Assembly: GCA_964479945.1 (NCBI GenBank)
Contig: CAYZNS010000001.1
Coordinates: forward strand, 11,493 to 75,492
From: an uncultured Candidatus Saccharibacteria bacterium
GTDB lineage: Bacteria; Patescibacteriota; Minisyncoccia; Ryanbacterales; 2-02-FULL-48-12
Reading direction: 5' to 3'
DNA: 64,000 nucleotides
Shown: positions 4,892-47,797 of the stretch, one piece after another
Layout: the number at the start of each line of letters is the position of its first letter
How positions within the stretch are numbered: the stretch's first letter is position 1
Program-made: the position numbers and the translations under genes
The notes under the pieces: generated by a model
What the model was told of the DNA's origin: nothing
The model's input: the letters and a program-made list of their open reading frames with translations, nothing else
Database searches by the model: none

Positions 4892-4998
4892 AGACAAATA
4901 ACCACTGAACAATATAGAACGTAAAACGTGTAACGTAGAACGTTAAAAAAACAATTTTCTTGCGCTCTACGTTCCACGATATACGCTTTGCGAAAAAT

Positions 4999-7461
4999 AT
5001 GTCCAAAGAATCACAACCCAGACAGACCCCGTCTGGCGTCTCCGAGCGCGAAATCACGCAGGAGATGCGCGAATCCTACCTGGATTATGCCATGTCCGTT
5101 ATTGTATCGCGGGCTCTTCCCGATGTGCGGGACGGCATGAAACCCGTGCATCGGCGTATTTTATACGCCATGCATGAGCTGGGGCTTACCCGCGCGGCCA
5201 AGTACAAAAAATCCGCCAACGTGGTAGGAGCCGTGCTGGGGAGTTATCATCCACATGGAGACAGCGCCGTGTATGACGCGCTTGCGCGCATGGCGCAGGA
5301 TTTTTCGCTTCGCTATCCTTTAATTGACGGCCAGGGCAACTGGGGCTCTGTTGACGGCGACAGCCCGGCAGCGATGAGATATACGGAATGCCGTATGGAA
5401 CGAATGGCCGAACTTATGCTCGCGGACATTGAAAAAGACACGGTTAATTTTCTGCCAAACTATGACGGCTCCAAACAGGAGCCGGCGGTACTGCCCGCGC
5501 GCGTGCCGCAACTTCTTCTTAATGGCTCGCTGGGCATTGCGGTCGGCATGGCAACAAACATTCCGTCGCATAACTTCATGGAACTCGCGGAGGCCATTGA
5601 TCATCTTATCAAGAATCCGAAAGCGACAACGGATGATCTTATGCAGTTTGTCAAAGGCCCTGACTTCCCAACCGGCGGTATCATTTTTAATAAAAAAGAT
5701 ATACATCAAGCATACGCCACCGGCAAGGGCGGGGTTTTGACGCGCGGAGAGGCGGAGATAGTGGAAAGCAAACAGGGCAATTTCCAGATAATTATCACGT
5801 CTATTCCCTACCAGGTAAACAAATCCGCGCTCCTGGAACGCATTGCAGATCTTGTACGCGAAAAGAAACTGGAAGGCATCAAAGATCTCCGCGACGAGTC
5901 GGACAAAGACGGCATGCGCATCGCGGTTGACTTGAAATCCGGCGCGTTCCCGCAAAAGATACTCAACAATATCTATAAGCACACGGATCTGGAACGGGTA
6001 TTCCACGTAAATATGCTGGCACTCGTAGACGGCATCCAGCCGCAGGTATTGAGCTTAAAGAACGTGCTAGAGGAATTTATTAAGCACCGGCAGGTCGTTA
6101 TTGAACGAAGAGTGCGGCATGACCTTAAAAAAGCCGAGGAGCGGGCGCATATCCTGGAAGGCCTCAAAAAAGCGCTGGACCACATTGATGCCATCATCAA
6201 AACCATAAAATCGTCCGCCGACAAAGAAACCGCGCATAAAAACCTGGTGGCGAAATTCAAGCTTACGCCAATCCAGGCAACCGCCATTTTGGAAATGCGG
6301 CTGCAGACGCTTGCCGGCCTGGAAAGGAAAAAAATTGAAGACGAACTCAAGGAAAAGCAAAAGCTGATTGCAGAATTAAAAAGCATCCTTGCAAACCCGA
6401 AAAAAATTCTCGGCATTATTACGGAAGAAACCGACGAGATACGGAAACTCTATCCCGAAGGGCGCCGAACGCGCGTAGTGGCAAGCGCCGCAAAATCCAT
6501 ATCCGTGGAGGACTTGGTGCCGGAAGAAGAGGCGGCAGTAATTCTAACGAAAGGCGGCTACATCAAGCGCGTCAATCCGGAAGAATACCGCATGCAGCGG
6601 CGGGGCGGCAAAGGCATTATCGGCATTATGACGAAAGAAGAAGACGTAGTGGATCAGTTTGTCACCGTGCATACACACGACAATCTTCTGTTCTTCACCT
6701 CGCTTGGCAAAGCGTATCAAACCCGCGCGTATGAGCTTCCCGAAGGCAAGCGCGTCTCCAAAGGGAAAGCAGTCGCGAATTTTCTTCCTCTTGCGTCCGA
6801 CGAGCGCGTAACATCCATACTGCCTGTACCGAAAAGCCCACCATCCGGCGAACGCAGCGACCTGTACCTGGTTATGGCGACCGAGCGCGGCGTTATCAAA
6901 AAAACGGAGGCCGCTCAATTTGCCGACGTGCGCAGAAGCGGCATTATTGCCATTAAACTCCAAAAAGGCGACCGATTGGGATGGGTGCGCATGGCGGGCG
7001 CCGATGAAGATATAACGCTGGCGACGCGCCAGGGTTTGAGCATCCGGTTCCGCGAGCGCGATGTGCGTCCGATGGGTCGCGCATCCACTGGCGTGCGCGC
7101 CATGCGTCTCAAAGCCAATGACGCCGTGGTTGGCGCGGATGTCGTGCAGAAAGGGACGCCCGGCGAGCTTTTGGTTATAGCCGAACAAGGCTACGGTAAA
7201 AAAACGAACATAAAAGAATATAAAGTGCAGCAGCGAGGCGGGTCCGGCATTAAAACCATGAACGTAACCACAAAAACAGGCACAATAGTATCCGCGCGCA
7301 TTATTCTCCCCGATGAAGAAGATCTTATCGCCGTCTCCGCCAAAGGACAGATTATTCGCACGCCGCTCAAAGACATTCCATCTCTGGGACGCGCAACACA
7401 GGGAGTGCGCATTATGCGGTTGGAGCAGAAGGATAAAGTCGCTTCTGTGACAACATTATAA
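4999..7461 (+). CDS. gyrA: DNA gyrase subunit A
   Basis: [29 protein letters not shown] and the full GyrA domain order, with a C-terminal beta-pinwheel. ATG at 4999 inside a TTG-initiated track ORF starting at 4960. Confidence 0.95.
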
Positions 7462-7600
7462 AAATTAAAAGTTCAAAGTTTAAAGTTCAAAGTGTTGGTA
7501 TTCCGGCTGCGCCGGAATGAATGTGTATAATCCTTGAGCGAAGCGAACACCAAAATTTTGAACTTTGCACTTTTAACTTTGCATTTATTCATAGTACGCC
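7462..7600. terminator. same class of element downstream of gyrA (AAAGTTCAAAGTTTAAAGTTCAAAG ... GC hairpin ... TTTTGAACTTTGCACTTTTAACTTTGCA)
   Basis: Inverted A-rich/T-rich arms around a TTCCGGC-TGCG-CCGGAA hairpin. Confidence 0.55.
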
Positions 7601-8827: not shown

Positions 8828-8940
8828 TGATAAAACCTGCAAACTCAAAACTCAAAACTGAAATGCAAAACCATTAAACTTTTTTAGTTTTGAGTTTTAA
8901 GTTGTAGTTTTGACTTTCGCGTTTTAACTTTTAAGTTTAC
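8828..8940. terminator. same class (CAAACTCAAAACTCAAAACTGAAATGCAAAAC ... AGTTTTGAGTTTTAAGTTGTAGTTTTGAC)
   Basis: Lies between two minus-strand genes; inverted low-complexity arms. Confidence 0.55.
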
Positions 8941-10217: not shown

Positions 10218-10411
10218 GGGCGTATTCTATCACAAAATTTGCTTGGTTTTAATACTATTGACCTTTCACTATTCACTTAACAGGCGCATGCCCCGTAAAA
10301 TGCCTATTTTAAAGCATTTTTGAGAAGACGACCATGTTAAGCTGTTTATGAAAGCTCAATAAAGATATTTTGTAATATGTTTTAAGAAACACGATCGTGA
10401 TTTATAGGAAT

Positions 10412-10463
10412 AATTCTATTCTATCAATTATTCGCATATGCGTATTTTTGATAGAATAGAATT
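10412..10463. promoter_or_regulatory. nested palindrome: perfect 16-nt arms AATTCTATTCTATCAA / TTGATAGAATAGAATT around an inner CGCATATGCG palindrome
   Basis: Read directly. Lies upstream of the FAD oxidoreductase start (10217) and downstream of the atpC-like gene. Confidence 0.55.
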
Positions 10464-10478
10464 TTCTTACAAAGTGTC

Positions 10479-17658: not shown

Positions 17659-17811
17659 ATATCAATAACCGTGAATTACAAAATATCTTTCTTTGAATTA
17701 CGAAATGTATTATTTGACATCTTGAATGTGCCGAGCCGGGCTATCCACAACACCTTTGGTGTGTGTAGAGCCCAACTAGTTACATTCCTTGCCGCATTTC
17801 GTAATTCACTG

Positions 17812-19759: not shown

Positions 19760-19917
19760 CAAAAATTATTCTAATTGCTCTAATTATTCTAATTGACCTA
19801 AGGAATGCCAAAATTCCAATACCCAATCATCAACATAATTTCTTTTGTGATTTAAGTCATTCGGTCATTGGGATTTCCTTAGAATAATTAGGTCAATTAG
19901 GGTAATTAGAATAATTT
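19760..19917 (+). mobile_element. MITE-like element, copy A (~160 bp, ~45-nt imperfect terminal inverted repeats)
   Basis: AAATTATTCTAATTGCTCTAATTATTCTAATTGACCTAAGG ... CCTTAGAATAATTAGGTCAATTAGGGTAATTAGAATAATTT. Near-identical copies at 34090-34247 and 47641-47797 (opposite orientation) and 43136-43599 (long form). Confidence 0.7.
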
Positions 19918-28030: not shown

Positions 28031-29029
28031 TTATATCAAATCAACATTGAGCGCCTCTTCTACAATATATTTCGGGCGCTGTTTTGTTTCCTCAAACATA
28101 ATACTCACGGCTTCCCCCAGAAATGACAAGGCGATTGAATGAAATGTGAGCAGGAATAATACGATAATAGACACCAAAGCGGCAAACCATGATAGCGTGC
28201 CGAAAAATGCGAGAATAATGAATGTTATGGCAAAGAACGGAAATAATATGGCAATCCAAAACGCAACACGTGTAATAAACGCAAACGGAGCTTCGGAAAA
28301 TGAAAATATAAACTTTTTCGCCCACCAAAAATTCTTGGCAAAGCCGGGGTTGGACGTAACGCCGCCTTTTCGATCCTCGCGGTTATATACCACGCCCGTA
28401 TGCCGGAACCCCAGCCATGCGCGGATACCCCTCACAAACCGCGAGCGCTCCGGCAACTTGTTAAACACGTCCGCAACCTGCCGGTCAAGCAGCGAGAAAT
28501 CTCCCGCATCAGCCGGAATATTCAGATAAGAAAGCTTATCAAATAGGCGGTAAAACCCCCGCCGGAACAGCCGCGAGAAAAATGAACCCGTTGAACGCGG
28601 GCGCACGCCATAGACTACTTTAAAGCCTTCCTGCCATTTTTTAATAAACTCCGTAATAACTTCCGGCGGATCTTGGAGATCGGCTTCCATCCAGATTATC
28701 GCATCCCCGCGGGCATACTCCGTGCCTGCCGAATAGCCATACTGCGAATTACCGTAATTGCGCGCAAAAAACAACGCTTTTACATGACCGTCGCGGGCTG
28801 CAAAGTCCCGCAGAAGCTCGCGCGTACGGTCGCGGCTGACGTTATCCACAAAAATAATTTCGTACTGCGGCGCGCTTTCCCGAAGAACTTTTGAAAGCCG
28901 CTGGTACAATTCCGGAATGTTGGATTCTTCGTTGTAGCAGGGGATTACAACGGAGAGCATTTTGTCGGTAAGAAAAGACATAAAAGATAACCCAAAACTC
29001 ATAATGCAAAAGTCAAAACTTAAACTCAA
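28031..29029 (-). CDS. GT2 glycosyltransferase, polyprenol-phosphate hexosyltransferase-like (DPM1/GtrB type) with C-terminal TM helices
   Basis: LSVVIPCYNEESNI...YEIIFVDNVSRDRTRELL...MEADLQDPPE, then two C-terminal TM helices. True start is probably an internal Met. Confidence 0.8.
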   Translation of the reverse strand: MSLSFDFCIMSFGLSFMSFLTDKMLSVVIPCYNEESNIPELYQRLSKVLRESAPQYEIIFVDNVSRDRTRELLRDFAARDGHVKALFFARNYGNSQYGYSAGTEYARGDAIIWMEADLQDPPEVITEFIKKWQEGFKVVYGVRPRSTGSFFSRLFRRGFYRLFDKLSYLNIPADAGDFSLLDRQVADVFNKLPERSRFVRGIRAWLGFRHTGVVYNREDRKGGVTSNPGFAKNFWWAKKFIFSFSEAPFAFITRVAFWIAILFPFFAITFIILAFFGTLSWFAALVSIIVLFLLTFHSIALSFLGEAVSIMFEETKQRPKYIVEEALNVDLI

Positions 29030-29103
29030 AAATAAAAACTAAAAGTTTTAAGTTTGAAGTTTCAGTTTTGCGTTTTGATTTTTGAATTTTGAATTTTGAG
29101 TTT
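29030..29103. terminator. same class (AAAGTCAAAACTTAAACTCAAAAATAAAAACT ... AGTTTTAAGTTTGAAGTTTCAGTTTTGCGTTTTGA)
   Basis: Lies between the DegT gene and the GT2 gene. Confidence 0.55.
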
Positions 29104-30302: not shown

Positions 30303-30420
30303 GCAATAAAACTCTAAATTCCAAACCCTAAACTCTAAACAAGTTCCAAACTCAAAATTTTAAACCCAAAACGCTTTGAACTTTAAGCTTTGAGTTTGTT
30401 TAGAGTTTAGGGTTTATTTC
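30303..30420. terminator. same class (CCCTAAACTCTAAACAAGTTCCAAACTCAAAATTTTAAACCCAAAACGCTTTGAAC ... GCTTTGAGTTTGTTTAGAGTTTAGGG)
   Basis: Lies between the transketolase and DegT genes. Has the longest arms (about 17-nt near-perfect CCCTAAACTCTAAACAA / TTGTTTAGAGTTTAGGG). Confidence 0.55.
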
Positions 30421-34089: not shown

Positions 34090-34247
34090 AAATTATTCTA
34101 ATTACCCTAATTGACCTAATTATTCTAAGGAAATCCCAATGACCGAATGATTTAAATCCCAAAAGAAACTATATATGTTGATGATTGGGTATTGTGATTT
34201 GGGCATTCCTTAGGTCAATTAGAATAATTAGAGCAATTAGAATAATT
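34090..34247 (-). mobile_element. MITE-like element, copy B (reverse orientation relative to copy A)
   Basis: Reverse complement of copy A with about 90% identity. Keeps the internal ATGACC start-codon remnant of the four-helix-bundle gene. Supplies the TAA stop of rfbG. Confidence 0.7.
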
Positions 34248-39631: not shown

Positions 39632-39740
39632 AGCTGAAATGCTTAGATTTCGTAGCGAAAATTGCAAACAAGTGAGGCGGCGTAGCATGCTACGCCAACG
39701 AGCTTTTTGCAATTTGCAGTAGAAATATAAGCATTTCAGC
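39632..39740. repeat. three-level nested palindrome: outer 19-nt arms, middle AAATTGCAAA arms, central perfect 18-nt palindrome GGCGTAGCATGCTACGCC
   Basis: Read directly: GCTGAAATGCTTAGATTTC ... GGCGTAGCATGCTACGCC ... GAAATATAAGCATTTCAGC. Confidence 0.6.
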
Positions 39741-42258: not shown

Positions 42259-43146
42259 ATGGAGAATACGAAAAAACGCGTGCTCATAACTGGTGCCGGC
42301 GGGATGCTCGGAAGCGCTTTTACGACGCATTGTATGGAAAAAAAATACAACACGCGCGCGCTGGACCATGCCGCGCTAGACGTGGAAAACCGCGCGGCAG
42401 TACGCACACAACAGAAATGGAGCCCGGATTGGATTATTCACTGCGCGGGTATTGTGAATGCCGATTTTTGCGAAGAGAATCGCGATGCGTGTTTCAAAAA
42501 CCATGTGGAAGGAACGCAACATATCGTGGAGCTTGCGAAAACAACCGGCGCCAAACTGCTCTATCCGCAATCGTTTCTCATTTTTGACGGCAAAGAAAAT
42601 CCTATCACTGAAGAAACCGTCCCTGACCCCCTTTCGGTGTATGGCGAGGCGAAATGGGAAGCGGAACAACGGGTGCGCAAAGAATTGCCCGACGCGCTCG
42701 TCGTCCGCATGGGCGGGTTTTTCGGCGGCGAAGAAAAAGACAAAAACTTTGTCGGCAAGTTCGCGCGTCATCTGAAAAAATGTCTTGACGAAAGTATCAA
42801 AGAAATATCCATAGGAAAAAGAGTTTGGCAGCCAACCTACACCAAAGACCTGGCGGAAAACTGTGTATTGCTTTTGGAACACGAAAAAATCGGCGTATAC
42901 AATATGGCAAGCCATGGTGAGGCATCGTTTTATGACGTGGCATCTGCAATGGTGGAAATCCTTGGAATTGACGACAAAATCACCATCACGCCGTCAACAG
43001 ACGAATATAAAGAAAACGCAAAACGCCCCGACCGCGCCGTGATGGAAAACAGAAGATTGCAAGAAGAAGGGTTGGATAGAATGAGGGGGTGGAAAGATGC
43101 GTTGGGAGAATATCTTTCGCAAAAATATTTTAAAGAATTATTCTAA
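42259..43146 (+). CDS. RmlD-like NAD(P)H-dependent 4-keto-sugar reductase (dTDP-4-dehydrorhamnose reductase family)
   Basis: RVLITGAGGMLGSAF...DWIIHCAGIVNADFCEENRDACFKNHVEGTQHIVELAK is RmlD substrate-binding-domain-like. ATG at 42259 chosen to avoid overlapping the convergent Nudix gene. Stop TAA lies inside the MITE terminal repeat. Confidence 0.75.
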   Translation: MENTKKRVLITGAGGMLGSAFTTHCMEKKYNTRALDHAALDVENRAAVRTQQKWSPDWIIHCAGIVNADFCEENRDACFKNHVEGTQHIVELAKTTGAKLLYPQSFLIFDGKENPITEETVPDPLSVYGEAKWEAEQRVRKELPDALVVRMGGFFGGEEKDKNFVGKFARHLKKCLDESIKEISIGKRVWQPTYTKDLAENCVLLLEHEKIGVYNMASHGEASFYDVASAMVEILGIDDKITITPSTDEYKENAKRPDRAVMENRRLQEEGLDRMRGWKDALGEYLSQKYFKELF

Positions 43147-43599
43147 TTGCTCTAATTATTCTAATTGACCTAATGAAATCCCAATGACCAATACAGATAT
43201 ACCAAAACGTAAATATGATCTTGAAGAAAGAACCGCAACATTCGGAGAAAATATCATCAAGTTTGCAAAGAAAATTCCTATTAATGATGTGACCAAGCGC
43301 ATTGTTCCTCAACTTGTAGCGGCTGGTACTGCTATTGGTGCTAACTATTGCGAGGCCGATGATGCTGAATCAGGAAAAGATTTTAAACATAAAATAGGGA
43401 TATCTAAGAAAGAGGCATGAGAAACGAAACATTGGCTTCGTATGATAGTGGTGGCTGCGTCAGAACTAAAGGATGAAGCACGCACGTTATGGAAAGAAGC
43501 TAATGAACTAAACCTTATTTTCAATGCCATAACCAGAAAAATCAACGATAAGAAAAAATAATTGGTGCTTTTGGTATTGGGGTTTCCTTAGAATAATTT
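43136..43599 (+). mobile_element. full-length TIR element (copy D, ~465 bp) carrying a four-helix-bundle-protein gene
   Basis: Left terminal repeat AATTATTCTAATTGCTCTAATTATTCTAATTGACCTAATGAAATCCCAATGACC and right end GGTATTGGGGTTTCCTTAGAATAATTT match the ends of the short copies. The interior is the four-helix-bundle ORF. Confidence 0.65.
43184..43561 (+). pseudogene. four-helix-bundle protein (TIGR02436 / 23S rRNA intervening-sequence protein family) interrupted by an in-frame TGA at 43418-43420
   Basis: ...LEERTATFGENIIKFAKKIP...VPQLVAAGTAIGANYCEADDAESGKDFKHKIGISKKEA*ETKHWLRMIVVAASELKDEARTLWKEANELNLIFNAITRKI. The family signature continues in frame across the TGA. Confidence 0.7.
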
Positions 43600-43601
43600 A
43601 T

Positions 43602-44648
43602 ATGCTGCTTCTCTCTCCATTCAACAAAAACGGCTTATCGCTCAAAAACCGCGTGGTAATGTCCGCCATGACGCGGAATTTTGCCGACAAAGACCACAAC
43701 CCTACCGATCTTATGCGCGCATATTACGAACGCCGGGCTGCAAACGATGTCGGGCTTATTTTGACGGAAGGCACTATCATCCACCCCAGCGGCGACGGCT
43801 ACCCCGATGTGCCATATATCTATACCAGCGCGCAAGTAGAAGTATGGAAGCGTATTACCGACGCCGTTCATCAGCACGATACAAAAATTTTCTGCCAGCT
43901 TTGGCACTGCGGGCGCATCTCGCATCCGGACTATCTGGGCGGCGCGCTGCCGGTTTCCTCCTCTGCCGTACTCCCGGAAGGCAATGCCCCGCATATGCAA
44001 GTGCCTATGATCACACCGCGCGCGTTAGAACACGATGAAATCCCCGAAATCGTAGAGATGTTCGCAGAAGCGACAAGAAAGGCCCTTGCAGCCGGGTTTG
44101 ACGGCGTGGAAATACACGGCGGGCATGGCTATATTGTTGACCAATTTTTCGACAGCCGCATCAACCGGCGCACGGACGAATATGGCGGCAGCGTGGAAAA
44201 CCGCTGCCGGTTCGGGCTGGAGGTTGCAAAAGCCGTGCTGGAAGTCGCCGGTCCCGAACGTACGGCGCTGCGCATCTCGCCCTCGCGCGACATGAAAGGC
44301 CTCTACGAATGGCTCAACTTGGAAGAGATGCTTACTTATCTTATCCCGCAACTTGATAAAGCGGGCTTGCACATCCTGGATATTAGCTGCGCCCGCAGCG
44401 ACACCGTAAACATATACGAATCAACATCGGGAAAGATAGTGCGCATGGTACGCGCAATGTGGCCGCATATTATCATGGCGGGTGCAAGTTTGCCGGCCGA
44501 ACGCGCAGATGAAGAAATAGAAAACGGCATGGTTGATCTTATAACCTACGGGCGGTTTATTTTAGCAAACCCCGATTTCGTAAAAAAAATAGCAGCGGGC
44601 GAGCCGCTGGTTCCGTATGATCCTGAGATGAGAAAAACGTTGTATTAA
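43602..44648 (+). CDS. Old Yellow Enzyme-family NADH:flavin oxidoreductase (alkene reductase)
   Basis: LKNRVVMSAMTRN, HGGHGYIVDQFF, and the C-terminal OYE barrel. Confidence 0.85.
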   Translation: MLLLSPFNKNGLSLKNRVVMSAMTRNFADKDHNPTDLMRAYYERRAANDVGLILTEGTIIHPSGDGYPDVPYIYTSAQVEVWKRITDAVHQHDTKIFCQLWHCGRISHPDYLGGALPVSSSAVLPEGNAPHMQVPMITPRALEHDEIPEIVEMFAEATRKALAAGFDGVEIHGGHGYIVDQFFDSRINRRTDEYGGSVENRCRFGLEVAKAVLEVAGPERTALRISPSRDMKGLYEWLNLEEMLTYLIPQLDKAGLHILDISCARSDTVNIYESTSGKIVRMVRAMWPHIIMAGASLPAERADEEIENGMVDLITYGRFILANPDFVKKIAAGEPLVPYDPEMRKTLY

Positions 44649-44865
44649 CTCAAAAACCAAAACTCAAAATGCAAAACTTAAACTCAAAACTGCAAACTGA
44701 CTTAAAATCACGCTGTTATAAATTCGGTCTTGAAGTTATTCGTTTGACCGATACCTTTCCACAATCGTGCCGCAAAAAAGGCCGGATCATGGACAAAGAC
44801 TGTGAAAAAATGCATCCCCCTATTGTCGTCGAACTGATTCAGCGCGCACGTAAAAAATAACCTCC

Positions 44866-46221: not shown

Positions 46222-46296
46222 TTTACCGCTATAATAAAGACATTATCAGGTGAGTAATCATCAATTGCTCACAAAAATAACGATAGTGTCTTTATG

Positions 46297-46717
46297 ATAG
46301 AAGTACATCGACATCCATATAATTCGGATATAACAGGTGCGCAGTGGGAGCGCATTGAACCGTTATTGCCAAAACAGGTCGAAAAAGAAGTAATCCACGC
46401 GAGGTACTAAACGGTATTCTCTATGTGCTTTCAACCGGTTGCCGATGGAAAGACCTGCCACACGATATTAGTGCGTCTCCTTCTACCTGTAATAGGTGGC
46501 TCCTTACCGAAAGAATCATAGAACTATCTATCTTGGAAGACCGCCAAAGGATACGCACGAAAAACGGTATAACCAGCAACGGTGGAAAGTGGAACGAACA
46601 TTTAGCCGGGCGAACAATAATCGGAGAATTGATCGTATGTTGGAACGAACACAGAAATCATATCGGGCATTTATACGAGTATATATCATGAAACATTATT
46701 TAAACCTTTTATATTAA
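46297..46717 (+). mobile_element. IS5/IS1182-family transposase remnant (frameshifted, internally deleted)
   Basis: N-terminal ...ITGAQWERIEPLLP... then a frameshift to ...LNGILYVLSTGCRWKDLPHD... (DUF4096-type). Far C-terminal ...QQRWKVERTFSRANNNRRI..RYE tail. The DDE core is missing. Confidence 0.65.
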
Positions 46718-47640: not shown

Positions 47641-47797
47641 AAATTATTCTAATTACCCTAATTGACCTAATTATTCTAAGGAAATCACAATGACCGAATG
47701 ATTTAAATCCCAAAAGAAACTATATATTGATGATTGGGTATTGGAATTTAGGCATTCCTTAGGTCAATTAGAATAATTAGATCAATTAGAATAATTC
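47641..47797 (-). mobile_element. MITE-like element, copy C
   Basis: Near-identical to copy B. Starts immediately after the rfbF ATG and ends about 10 nt before the stop of the next gene. Confidence 0.7.

Follow-up and report, generated by a model that had tools for sequence, protein, structure and literature searches.

The stretch of DNA analysed here (the window, 64,000 nucleotides) belongs to a Parcubacteria bacterium near Ca. Ryanbacteria and contains, at one gene junction, a gene for a four-helix-bundle (4HB) protein enclosed by inverted repeats, together with three short repeats that have the same ends. The locus raises the question of what this unit is, whether the short copies descend from it, and by what means such copies reach the places they occupy. 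The question extends well beyond one locus: the 4HB "IVS proteins" are among the most common unexplained small bacterial genes, and both their role and the origin of the intervening sequences (IVSs) of rRNA have been open since the early 1990s. We believe, with a probability of about 0.7, that the four copies (A to D, Table 1) form one family of promoterless, IVS-type selfish cassettes accompanied by hairpin derivatives that are mobilised in trans.

Four copies in one window

The original prediction located the repeats correctly to within 1-4 nt. The pattern CTAATTNNNCTAATTNNNCTAA (two mismatches or fewer) has 21 matches in the window, all within the loci A-D, against 0.06 expected from dinucleotide shuffling; the arms, (AATTNNNCT)x4, are common to all four loci, and each copy lies between protein-coding genes. 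In the coordinates given for A-D, the element ends are defined as 5'-AATT...AATT-3'.

Table 1. Coordinates of the four copies and of the parts of copy D in the window
Feature	Coordinates	Strand	Remarks
Copy A, short ORF-less hairpin	19764..19916	+	between UDP-glucose-dehydrogenase-like gene and Wzy_C gene
Copy B, short form	34091..34247	-	between two sugar-nucleotide epimerase/dehydratase genes
Copy C, short form	47642..47796	-	between PMT_2 gene and NTP_transferase gene
Copy D, decayed long form	43136..43598	+	termini 5'-AATT...AATT-3'
D, left outer arm	43136..43171	+	four 9-nt units: AATTATTCT AATTGCTCT AATTATTCT AATTGACCT
D, left inner zone and leader	43172..43197	+	AATGAAATCCCAATGACCAATAC; start codon within, at 43184
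D, four-helix-bundle ORF (TIGR02436 / PF05635, S23p/Avd fold)	43184..43561	+	TGA-interrupted
D, 3' untranslated inner zone and right outer arm remnant	43562..43598	+	TTGGTGCTTTTGGTATTGGGGTTTCC and TTAGAATAATT

The short copies are 153-157 nt long, have no ORF and are 94-96% identical to each other (B and C, 95.6% over 158 nt; B and A, in inverted orientation, 94.4% over 160 nt). They share their interior and occupy three unrelated gene junctions. B begins directly after the stop codon TAA of the upstream gene and C ends one nucleotide before the ATG of the next one; the two genes flanking A are both on the - strand, and A is inverted relative to B and C as well as to transcription. All three fold into stable hairpins (MFE -38 to -52 kcal/mol, z from -3.8 to -7.9; for A, MFE -50.7/-42.4 kcal/mol and z -7.9/-5.9). 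Hairpins of broadly this kind are present at about one in four gene junctions of the window, and one public contig terminates inside copy B.

Copy D is a long form in poor condition. Over 59-62 nt, its left arm has 87-88% identity with one of the arms found in the short copies, and its left inner zone is imperfectly complementary to 43562-43589; D is not symmetric, since the right end keeps a single repeat unit (CCTTAGAATAATT), the usual number being 3-4, versus four on the left. The first repeat unit of D takes in the final three codons and the stop (43144-43146) of the upstream RmlD-like gene, and the ATG of the downstream OYE-type oxidoreductase gene is at 43602. The ORF inside D was described as a four-helix-bundle gene of the TIGR02436 type, which is correct provided that an in-frame TGA is read through: with this codon read as Arg, the ORF scores 69.7 bits against TIGR02436 (cut-off 24) and 47.9 bits against PF05635 (cut-off 33.8), and it matches PDB entry 2RLD by sequence with E 8e-14. 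The TGA (43418-43420) stands where 31 close homologues all have Arg. We considered TGA recoding and ruled it out: TGA is an ordinary stop in the host genome (14/49 genes). To judge from the sequence, the ORF is a pseudogene or yields a 78-aa truncated product, because the TGA interrupts it at an invariant Arg codon, and D, with its nonsense codon and truncated right arm, is a dead copy.

The suggestion that D is the parent of the short copies is not supported, given the nonsense codon, the truncated right arm and a divergence of ~12% from A, B and C. The related suggestion that the short copies retain both ends of the gene holds for one side. They share with D the arms, the leader through ATGACC and the 3' UTR repeats; the common 3' part is the untranslated stretch past the stop codon (TTGGTATTGGGGTTTCCTTAG) and not the last 25 nt of the gene. 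Moreover, ATGACC belongs to the inner repeat zone itself, and the short forms consist of two repeat zones and a small loop, with nothing else. An internal deletion of the coding part is for this reason not demonstrable.

Anatomy and position of the family in Patescibacteria

GTDB species genomes contain 430 loci of the CTAATT-type 4HB subfamily. In nearly all of the 80 that were examined, CTAATT arrays precede the gene and AATTAG arrays follow it (both arms in L002 and L007). The full unit is ~480 bp long with the ends 5'-AATT...AATT-3'. At each end, 3-4 CTAATT hexamers with 1 or 3 free nucleotides between them make up the outer arm; inward of it lies an inner zone of 7-8-nt repeats (CCAATGAC-like) that includes the start codon, and the gene occupies the loop. 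The hexamer is exact in 407/430 arm units, and the spacers are not complementary between the two arms (same-rank matches 5/101, null 10%).

The prediction that long gene-bearing and short gene-less forms have the same ends was confirmed also beyond the window, where both show the same arms and subterminal repeats, and the proposed search for more copies in related genomes was productive. In 1.06 Mb of Patescibacteria DNA, arm pairs of equal length are bimodal in their spacing: 33 are short (27-245 nt between the arms, mostly 50-100) and 63 are long (350-550 nt, with the gene inside). Thirty short forms other than A, B and C come from other genomes. Inverted arm pairs number 0 among the 120 viral control loci listed as matching a loose version of the pattern; these matches are single and unrelated.

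The long forms stand in sense within co-directional gene arrays (flanking genes (+,+) in 39 cases, (-,-) in 0) and take up the entire intergenic spacer: the median distance is 0 nt from the upstream stop to the left end and 6 nt from the right end to the next ORF start, and 21/50 long forms either touch the upstream stop codon or contain it. Scanning D and B for promoters and terminators gave nothing above shuffles; a weak outward match, TGGGCA-17-AATAAT, was seen in these scans. We infer that the cassette is expressed by read-through transcription from the host, since it has no detectable promoter, stands in sense orientation in co-directional arrays and replaces the whole spacer. In such a transcript the arms may pair into an imperfect stem in which the start codon is buried and which, by analogy with rRNA IVSs, might be cut by RNase III. 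A test for an RNA-structure signature in 67 elements was negative and gives no evidence of an RNA-level role: sense and antisense arm pairing are equal (-30.8 vs -31.1 kcal/mol), and so are the G-U pairs (178 vs 174; p = 0.68).

The protein encoded in the full unit is a basic four-helix bundle of 120-130 aa with the S23p/Avd fold; it has at least 7,900 homologues. As a stand-in for the D protein we used a monomer AF2 model of its homologue P0004 (84% identical to it), which has four helices at pLDDT 91.3 and which Foldseek matches to 2RLD (TM 0.74-0.84), to 2GSC (0.75-0.83), to Avd (4DWL) and to the DGR RT-Avd RNP (8UB7); the PDB entries matched contain five chains, A-E (pentamers). No transposase family in Pfam or NCBIfam matched the 4HB protein, known defence-system profiles (PADLOC) gave no match, and the subfamily was not found in viral contigs. 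Identity is 0.291 at 4-fold sites (chance 0.267) versus 0.785 at codon positions 1+2; synonymous sites are saturated while both the protein and the hexamer are conserved, and strong purifying selection acts on the protein.

Avd, the accessory protein of diversity-generating retroelements, resembles the 4HB protein in being a basic four-helix bundle, pentameric in crystals and nucleic-acid-binding in the RNP (4DWL, 8UB7). The sequence identity, however, is only 16-18%, and flanking hexamer arrays are no feature of DGRs; there is no reverse transcriptase among the called genes within ~20 kb of D, and no TR/VR-like long direct repeat was found near D.

How the copies may spread

Two of the sites have empty counterparts in relatives. 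At the junction corresponding to site B the genes are 14 nt apart in L294 and 4 nt apart in L296, and at site C of L294 the two genes overlap by ATGA. These relatives are syntenic (Ryanbacteria relative), and the flanking protein is only 66-69% identical, so that the left boundaries cannot be fixed to the nucleotide. Filled and empty alleles within a population were not found: the contigs from two other samples do not differ from the window (100% identity), exact-protein look-ups with the neighbours of B, C and other genes led back only to this contig or to such identical contigs, and a metagenome scan with the epimerase adjoining copy B gave only homologues of 32% identity or less.

The empty junctions have to be weighed against the possibility that the elements are domesticated operon modules, immobile today, in which the hairpin would be a signal for RNA processing, stability or insulation and the 4HB protein a nucleic-acid-binding factor of the host. 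Purifying selection on the protein and the exclusively sense orientation of the long forms (39:0) would also fit such a host-beneficial gene; the hairpins are stable, the homologous IVS stems are RNase III substrates (PMC4990558), and hairpins of similar style occur at other junctions of the window. We nonetheless consider a domesticated module unlikely: near-identical copies lie at unrelated junctions, orthologous junctions are empty (one with the stop/start overlap ATGA), the cassette type at one and the same junction varies between genomes, A is oriented against transcription, G-U pairs show no strand asymmetry, complementarity of the spacers is not kept, and D was allowed to decay.

Further observations support mobility, as the selfish-cassette reading has it. 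Within-genome copies are each other's nearest relatives in 3/4 cases, and the sequence comparisons support the view that short copies have spread as short copies. The short forms proliferate on their own and must therefore be mobilised in trans. Their long relatives encode only the 4HB protein, and no enzyme able to cut and join DNA was found: there is no transposase within or beside any of ~90 long copies, and the search of the window for one ended at a single transposase-like sequence, a degraded IS4/5 fragment whose ends are unrelated to the arms. Direct repeats outside the termini are not enriched at k = 1-6 in 68 elements (at k=2, 2 observed vs 7.3 expected), although an AATT duplication inside the termini would escape this count, and at sites B and C no target duplication is visible in comparison with the empty counterparts.

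The short copies had been called a classic MITE pattern. A, B and C are indeed short, non-coding and multicopy and have terminal inverted repeats; however, target-site duplication is lacking, and the long form has no known transposase gene. The same evidence bears on an ordinary TIR transposon with its MITEs, in which a DDE transposase encoded elsewhere would bind the CTAATT arrays and move both forms with the 4HB gene as a passenger. Such a transposon would account for the proliferation of short forms in trans and for arms built as inverted arrays of a conserved hexamer with free spacers, which look like multiple subterminal transposase-binding sites, a feature of Tn7 and Ac/Ds. Yet for a given arm type the cargo always belongs to one protein subfamily, and strong purifying selection acts on it; together with the missing target duplications, the long copies without a transposase and the unrelated ends of the only remnant in the window, this makes the explanation improbable. 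Co-transcribed MITEs (Correia/NEMIS of Neisseria, ERIC, RUP, BOX) are similar as multicopy, non-autonomous intergenic elements of ~150 bp with inverted ends that form hairpins in operon transcripts. In Correia and other DDE-derived MITEs, insertion duplicates the target site (TA for Correia), and no such duplication was found for the present elements; the related long form here encodes a 4HB protein instead of a transposase, and the arms are hexamer arrays.

The lack of target duplication argues against a DDE transposase and for a mechanism of the hairpin/ssDNA or recombination type, by which a putative enzyme would insert the cassette. One specific form is single-strand hairpin transposition of the IS200/IS605-RAYT or integron-attC kind, with an HUH or tyrosine enzyme acting in trans on a short target motif. 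Here it is consistent that the entire short form is a hairpin, that the termini AATT...AATT are fixed and flanked outside by preferred bases (A at -1 in 39/68 elements, T at +1 in 45/68), and that insertions are confined to intergenic spots; strand-specific insertion, established for IS608, could add to the orientation bias. In same-strand gene arrays, on the other hand, short copies point either way. The loci examined showed no HUH or integrase gene, and the domain-annotated parts of the window no HUH gene; the hairpins are A+T-rich hexamer arrays and not REP-like. REP/BIME elements with RAYT and IS200/IS605 share with our family intergenic palindromes, the absence of target duplication and mobilisation in trans; but REPs are G+C-rich stem-loops of 20-40 nt with a conserved tetranucleotide, as opposed to 50-nt A+T-rich arrays in elements that carry a conserved protein gene or derive from a carrier of one. 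This particular mechanism seems to us rather unlikely.

Homing-type spread, as of the free-standing homing endonuclease genes of T4-like phages, would copy the cassette into empty alleles by break repair, following DNA exchange between cells, and leave the arms as by-products. An observation in its favour, which also speaks for mobility in general, is a T4SS junction that holds, depending on the genome, a CTAATT-type 4HB cassette, a member of either of two further 4HB subfamilies whose arm motifs differ, or a cassette with a GxxExxY gene; the same junction is empty in L204. The GxxExxY gene is of the PD-(D/E)XK type, and one other 4HB subfamily has arms of the AATCAAAA or TATCAAT type. Free-standing homing endonuclease genes are likewise small, promoterless sense genes in tight junctions shared by different gene types, and here too the cassettes are wedged in sense between conserved genes that stay undisrupted, with no target duplication. 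The 4HB protein, however, has no known nuclease motif, arm sequence is conserved and not incidental, and palindromic arms and ORF-less derivatives have no counterpart among homing genes. Identical short copies lie at non-homologous junctions of one genome, and because of this their spread cannot be homing. We regard the whole proposal as very unlikely.

IVS anatomy at protein-coding operon junctions

The IVS of 23S rRNA is bounded by terminal inverted repeats, carries an S23p ORF whose start codon follows heptamer repeats, and is cleaved by RNase III, as was demonstrated experimentally (PMC4990558). The 4HB unit bounded by inverted repeats had been presented as unusual; in itself it is not, since it equals the published anatomy of the 23S-rRNA IVS in Leptospira and Coxiella (PMC4990558). 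The family described here is built like this IVS but is located at protein-coding operon junctions in the ultra-small Patescibacteria.

The likeness to the IVSs of Leptospira, Coxiella burnetii and Brucella and to the Xanthomonas-type protein includes the protein family (PF05635/TIGR02436) and fold (2RLD/2GSC), a sense ORF in the loop of terminal inverted repeats (in D, a full left arm and one right unit), and short tandem repeats directly before the start codon, which in Coxiella are GACAGAT heptamers (PMC4990558). ORF-less short versions and a sporadic distribution suggesting horizontal spread are known for IVSs as well (PMC4990558; PMC11270868). The differences are equally clear. The present elements lie between genes of protein-coding operons: the window has no match in Rfam, and conserved rRNA motifs are absent from all fetched loci. 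Their arms repeat a conserved hexamer, with spacers that are not complementary, in contrast to the near-perfect 28-bp stem of the IVS; the elements reach many copies per genome and have proliferating hairpin derivatives; and purifying selection on their protein is strong, while in Coxiella the ORF is decaying. IVS anatomy outside rRNA, at operon junctions and on a large scale, with hexamer-array arms and proliferating hairpins, appears to be new; we found no such description in the literature.

We presume that a sequence-specific factor recognises the conserved hexamer arrays. The leading candidate would be the 4HB protein of the element itself, since every 4HB subfamily is accompanied by an arm motif of its own; this co-variation is seen in the sequences of 7 paralogues and would also result from simple co-inheritance of a linked unit. 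Taken further, the 4HB protein might serve its own cassette as the sequence-specific recognition subunit: by binding to the hexamer arrays on both sides of its gene (CTAATT here, other motifs for other subfamilies), it would direct the copying or insertion of both long and ORF-less forms at gene junctions without a conventional transposase, and the rRNA IVSs would be those members of a wider class that landed in tolerant rRNA loops. This proposal is speculative, and we offer it tentatively; if true, it would answer what the IVS ORF is for, a question open since 1993.

What is seen of the family in the window and elsewhere turns the vague idea that the ORF is needed for mobility into a testable one, namely whether a 125-aa protein binds 4 x CTAATT arrays and how far subfamilies show cross-specificity. 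In practical terms, the repeats break metagenome assemblies and supply upstream genes with stop codons. The window and the 80 related loci make the IVS-type unit a general junction-invading cassette in Patescibacteria, with an anatomy that can be precisely defined.

Anatomy and distribution of the elements

Copy D (the long form with a four-helix-bundle, 4HB, ORF) and three ORF-less repeats of ~155 nt (the short copies A, B and C) were originally predicted to share their termini, and they do. The termini common to the four window loci are built from the 9-nt unit AATTNNNCT, i.e., the hexamer CTAATT and three free bases; a degenerate pattern of the arm has 21 matches in the window, and all 21 fall inside copies A-D (0.06 expected from shuffles). 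Identity is 95.6% between copies B and C and 94.4% between B and A (inverted); the left arm of D is 87-88% identical to one short-copy arm. All four copies occupy tiny gaps between co-directional genes. Long imperfect hairpins are predicted for the short copies (MFE -38 to -52 kcal/mol, z -3.8 to -7.9), which lie both ways round, A being inverted relative to B and C, all three within minus-strand gene arrays. The public contig ena:ERZ27245644:k141_807026 stops at window position 34199, inside copy B; therefore, that assembly broke within the repeat.

The window is metagenomic, with identical sequence in ENA ERZ27245644 and two JGI samples. Its GyrA is 79% identical to that of a "Parcubacteria group bacterium" and 72% to that of Ca. 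Ryanbacteria, and the region is a gene island for cell-envelope glycan. GyrA homologues 80-82% identical contain inteins (Intein_splicing/LAGLIDADG domains); the window GyrA (4960-7461) has none.

Elements and related features in and near the window (window coordinates unless a fetched locus, L, is named)
Feature	Position	z	Description
Copy A	19764-19916		ends defined as 5'-AATT...AATT-3'
Copy B	34091-34247		ends defined as 5'-AATT...AATT-3'
Copy C	47642-47796		ends defined as 5'-AATT...AATT-3'
Copy D	43136-43598		ends defined as 5'-AATT...AATT-3'
4HB ORF of D	43184-43561		PF05635 47.9 bits, TIGR02436 69.7 bits
Second family of intergenic hairpins	2524-2627, 7462-7586, 8832-8911, 28993-29091, 30323-30415	-3.3 to -9.7	
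Truncated long element of second type	44646-44865		CAAAACT/CAAAATG repeats, then 33 codons (MQNLNSKLQTDLKSRCYKFGLEVIRLTDTFPQS)
Intergenic palindrome	17694-17808	-4.1	AATTACGAAATG arms
Intergenic palindrome	39636-39737	-6.9	GAAATGCTTAG...GCAAATTG arms
Intergenic palindrome	10401-10474	-6.7	near-perfect TTCTATTCTATCAA stem
Degraded IS4/5-family transposase	46290-46700		DUF4096 and DDE_Tnp_1_2 fragments, each below curated cut-off
Hairpin with CGTAAYC heptamer arms	L299 19790-19875		~9 kb past window end
4HB gene with complete short hairpin	L158 9303-9935; L176 6949-7585; likewise L184, L197, L201, L206		

Some hairpin is found at about a quarter of the window gene junctions in total. The arms of the second family are short-period A-rich repeats (CAAAATG / CAAAACT / AAAGTTC types); two of its hairpins lie between convergent genes, and both enclose a small G+C-rich stem-loop. 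The 33 codons of the truncated element resemble the N-terminus of another 4HB subfamily (L143 4629-5000, MQNENAKFK...), and the sequence past them is unrelated. The 10 kb past the window end (L299) contain no further CTAATT-type copies.

Homologues of the D protein, its in-frame stop repaired, number more than 7,900 among the matches listed; the best are 81-84% identical and the named ones come from the Patescibacteria group; for many, the contig is ~1 kb long. In three unrelated contigs (e.g., Ca. Taylorbacteria MHRI01000030.1) the homologous gene is preceded by (CTAATTNNN)x3-4, and in two of them an inverted array follows it. Scanning a single genome for each GTDB species gave 430 loci with the 4HB subfamily; the best 80, spanning more than 15 candidate phyla-level groups, nearly all have CTAATT arrays on the 5' side and AATTAG arrays on the 3' side. 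The window and the 80 loci (1.06 Mb) contain 63 long arm pairs (inter-arm 350-550 nt, gene present) and 33 short ones (27-245 nt, mostly 50-100). The viral control, 120 listed loci that match a loose arm pattern, has no inverted arm pair, and the D-type 4HB subfamily is absent from viral contigs.

Of 96 elements, 68 have the termini AATT...AATT, flanked by A at position -1 in 39/68 and by T at +1 in 45/68. An outer arm usually consists of three full hexamers; their spacers measure 3 nt in 191 cases and 1 nt in 45. Inside both arms lies an inner zone made of repeats 7-8 nt long, such as CCAATGAC and CTAATGTC; it takes in the start codon together with the opening codons (MTND... N-termini). Short forms are the two zones and a small loop, with no recognisable coding remnant in them; what had been taken for the gene's final 25 nt is therefore the 3' untranslated inner zone. 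It is plausible that short forms arose by internal deletion of the long form; the reverse history fits equally well. In several genomes a complete short hairpin (left and right arm) stands directly 3' of the 4HB gene in place of the simple right arm, pointing to insertions that are nested or in tandem, or to elements that have recombined.

Position, insertion and the fate of copy D

Where both neighbours of a long form are resolved, the context is (+,+) in 39 cases and (-,-) in none. The median distance between the upstream stop codon and the left end is 0 nt, and in 21/50 long forms this codon is inside the element or directly adjoins it; the next ORF begins a median of 6 nt past the right end. 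Over D and B, no promoter or terminator signal rises above background; we presume that the cassette is promoterless and would likely be expressed via operon read-through.

Copy D is dead. An in-frame TGA (43418-43420) replaces an Arg invariant in 31 close homologues (KKEAR-ETKHW), and since TGA terminates 14 of the 49 window genes, the gene is a nonsense pseudogene; the right arm is down to a single unit. The RmlD-like gene 5' of D stops at 43144-43146, inside the first repeat unit, and the ATG of the 3' gene is at 43602, four bases past the final base of D. Neither the window nor the 10 kb past its end has an intact long CTAATT-type copy.

The near-identical short copies stand at three unrelated junctions, and the sites of B and C are empty in the syntenic Ryanbacteria relative L294 (524-kb contig; flanking protein 66% identical), in which 21 kb lack both CTAATT arms and the 4HB gene. 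At site C of L294, PMT_2 and NTP_transferase share an ATGA overlap; the right boundary in the window reads ...AGAATAATT followed, across the boundary, by TATGAAAG, and the relative reads ...TCCATATGAAAG. At site B, the spacer between two epimerase genes is 14 nt in L294 and 4 nt in L296, another syntenic relative. The junction of D holds a different 135-nt hairpin in L294 (6098-6240, between RmlD-like and OYE genes; arms AGAACTACAAAAYATT..GGAATAAA..TTTTAAAATCG); RmlD ends in ...DYFKDLFN* there versus ...KYFKELF* in the window, where element D encodes ELF*.

In the type IV secretion operon of Patescibacteria, the junction between a 226-aa gene and the VirB4-like ATPase after it differs in content between genomes. 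It holds a CTAATT-type cassette in five genomes, CTAATT arms around a non-4HB loop in one, 4HB genes 32% and 57% identical to the D protein in two (arm motifs AATCAAAA and TATCAAT), and only a 5-nt spacer in one. In one more (L154 2290-2805) a small GxxExxY gene (TIGR04256, PD-(D/E)XK-like) lies between inverted CACGAAT/ACGAAT arrays; thus, a second cargo type uses the same cassette architecture. The VirB4-like gene of L143 (6937-8930) is split by a ~2-kb insertion.

The nearest relative of a long copy is another copy of the same genome in 3/4 cases. No duplication of the target site can be detected outside the AATT termini, inside which an AATT duplication would escape notice. The surroundings of the degraded IS4/5 transposase have no similarity to CTAATT arms. 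The short forms are probably mobilised in trans by whatever recognises the arms, and the insertion chemistry is, somewhat less surely, of a non-DDE kind.

Selection and the possible role of the protein

At their 4-fold degenerate sites, 77 ORFs share an identity of 0.291 versus 0.267 by chance, i.e., neutral sites are saturated; yet identity at codon positions 1+2 is 0.785, and the exact hexamer is kept in 407/430 arm units. Therefore, protein and hexamer are both maintained. Complementary spacers between arms are not kept (5/101 identical at equal rank versus a null of 10%). In 67 long elements the arms bear no RNA-specific signature: folding gives -30.8 kcal/mol sense versus -31.1 antisense (p = 0.68), with 178 versus 174 G-U pairs. 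Since the spacers are non-complementary and the pairing energy is equal on both strands, what is conserved is a sequence motif in inverted arrays and not a maximised RNA stem; the elements do fold, but their arms are more reminiscent of recognition-site arrays than of a hairpin that is structural alone.

The AF2 model of P0004, an 84%-identical homologue of the repaired D protein (TGA read as Arg), is a four-helix bundle (pLDDT 91.3). Its Foldseek matches include the S23p-type proteins 2RLD and 2GSC, with five chains each, and also components of diversity-generating retroelements (DGRs), namely Avd from that of a Bordetella phage (4DWL) and the RT-Avd ribonucleoprotein (8UB7, 8UBE). A match to 2RLD is also obtained by sequence (E 8e-14). 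The repaired D protein is basic (pI 9.4). There is no reverse transcriptase near D, and defence-system profiles give no match. It is tempting to propose that the 4HB protein recognises its own arms, and subfamily and arm co-vary in seven paralogues; linkage could also explain this, and we consider the proposal doubtful.

Relation to intervening sequences and MITEs

A 4HB gene in a TIR-bounded unit had been thought unusual; published 23S-rRNA intervening sequences (IVSs) have that anatomy, so such a unit was already known. The Coxiella IVS is a 428-nt element with a sense S23p ORF, heptamers repeated in tandem just 5' of the start codon, and terminal inverted repeats forming a stem cut by RNase III (PMC4990558). 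By analogy with it, RNase III might process the transcript stem of the present elements. Older proposals cited for IVSs regard them as transposition remnants, or as mobile elements with an ORF for mobility (PMC4990558), and rRNA insertions of CPR bacteria also carry 23S_rRNA_IVP ORFs (PMC11270868). In the literature covered, which included few subscription-journal papers, we found no account of 4HB units that lie at operon junctions rather than in rRNA and combine hexamer-array arms, sense-only orientation and the lack of a target duplication with ORF-less derivatives proliferating across Patescibacteria.

Unlike an rRNA IVS, the CTAATT element does not lie in rRNA; unlike a DDE-type MITE, it has neither a detectable target-site duplication nor a transposase-encoding parent. 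Because it differs from both in their defining features, we believe that it is IVS- and MITE-like and a member of neither class.
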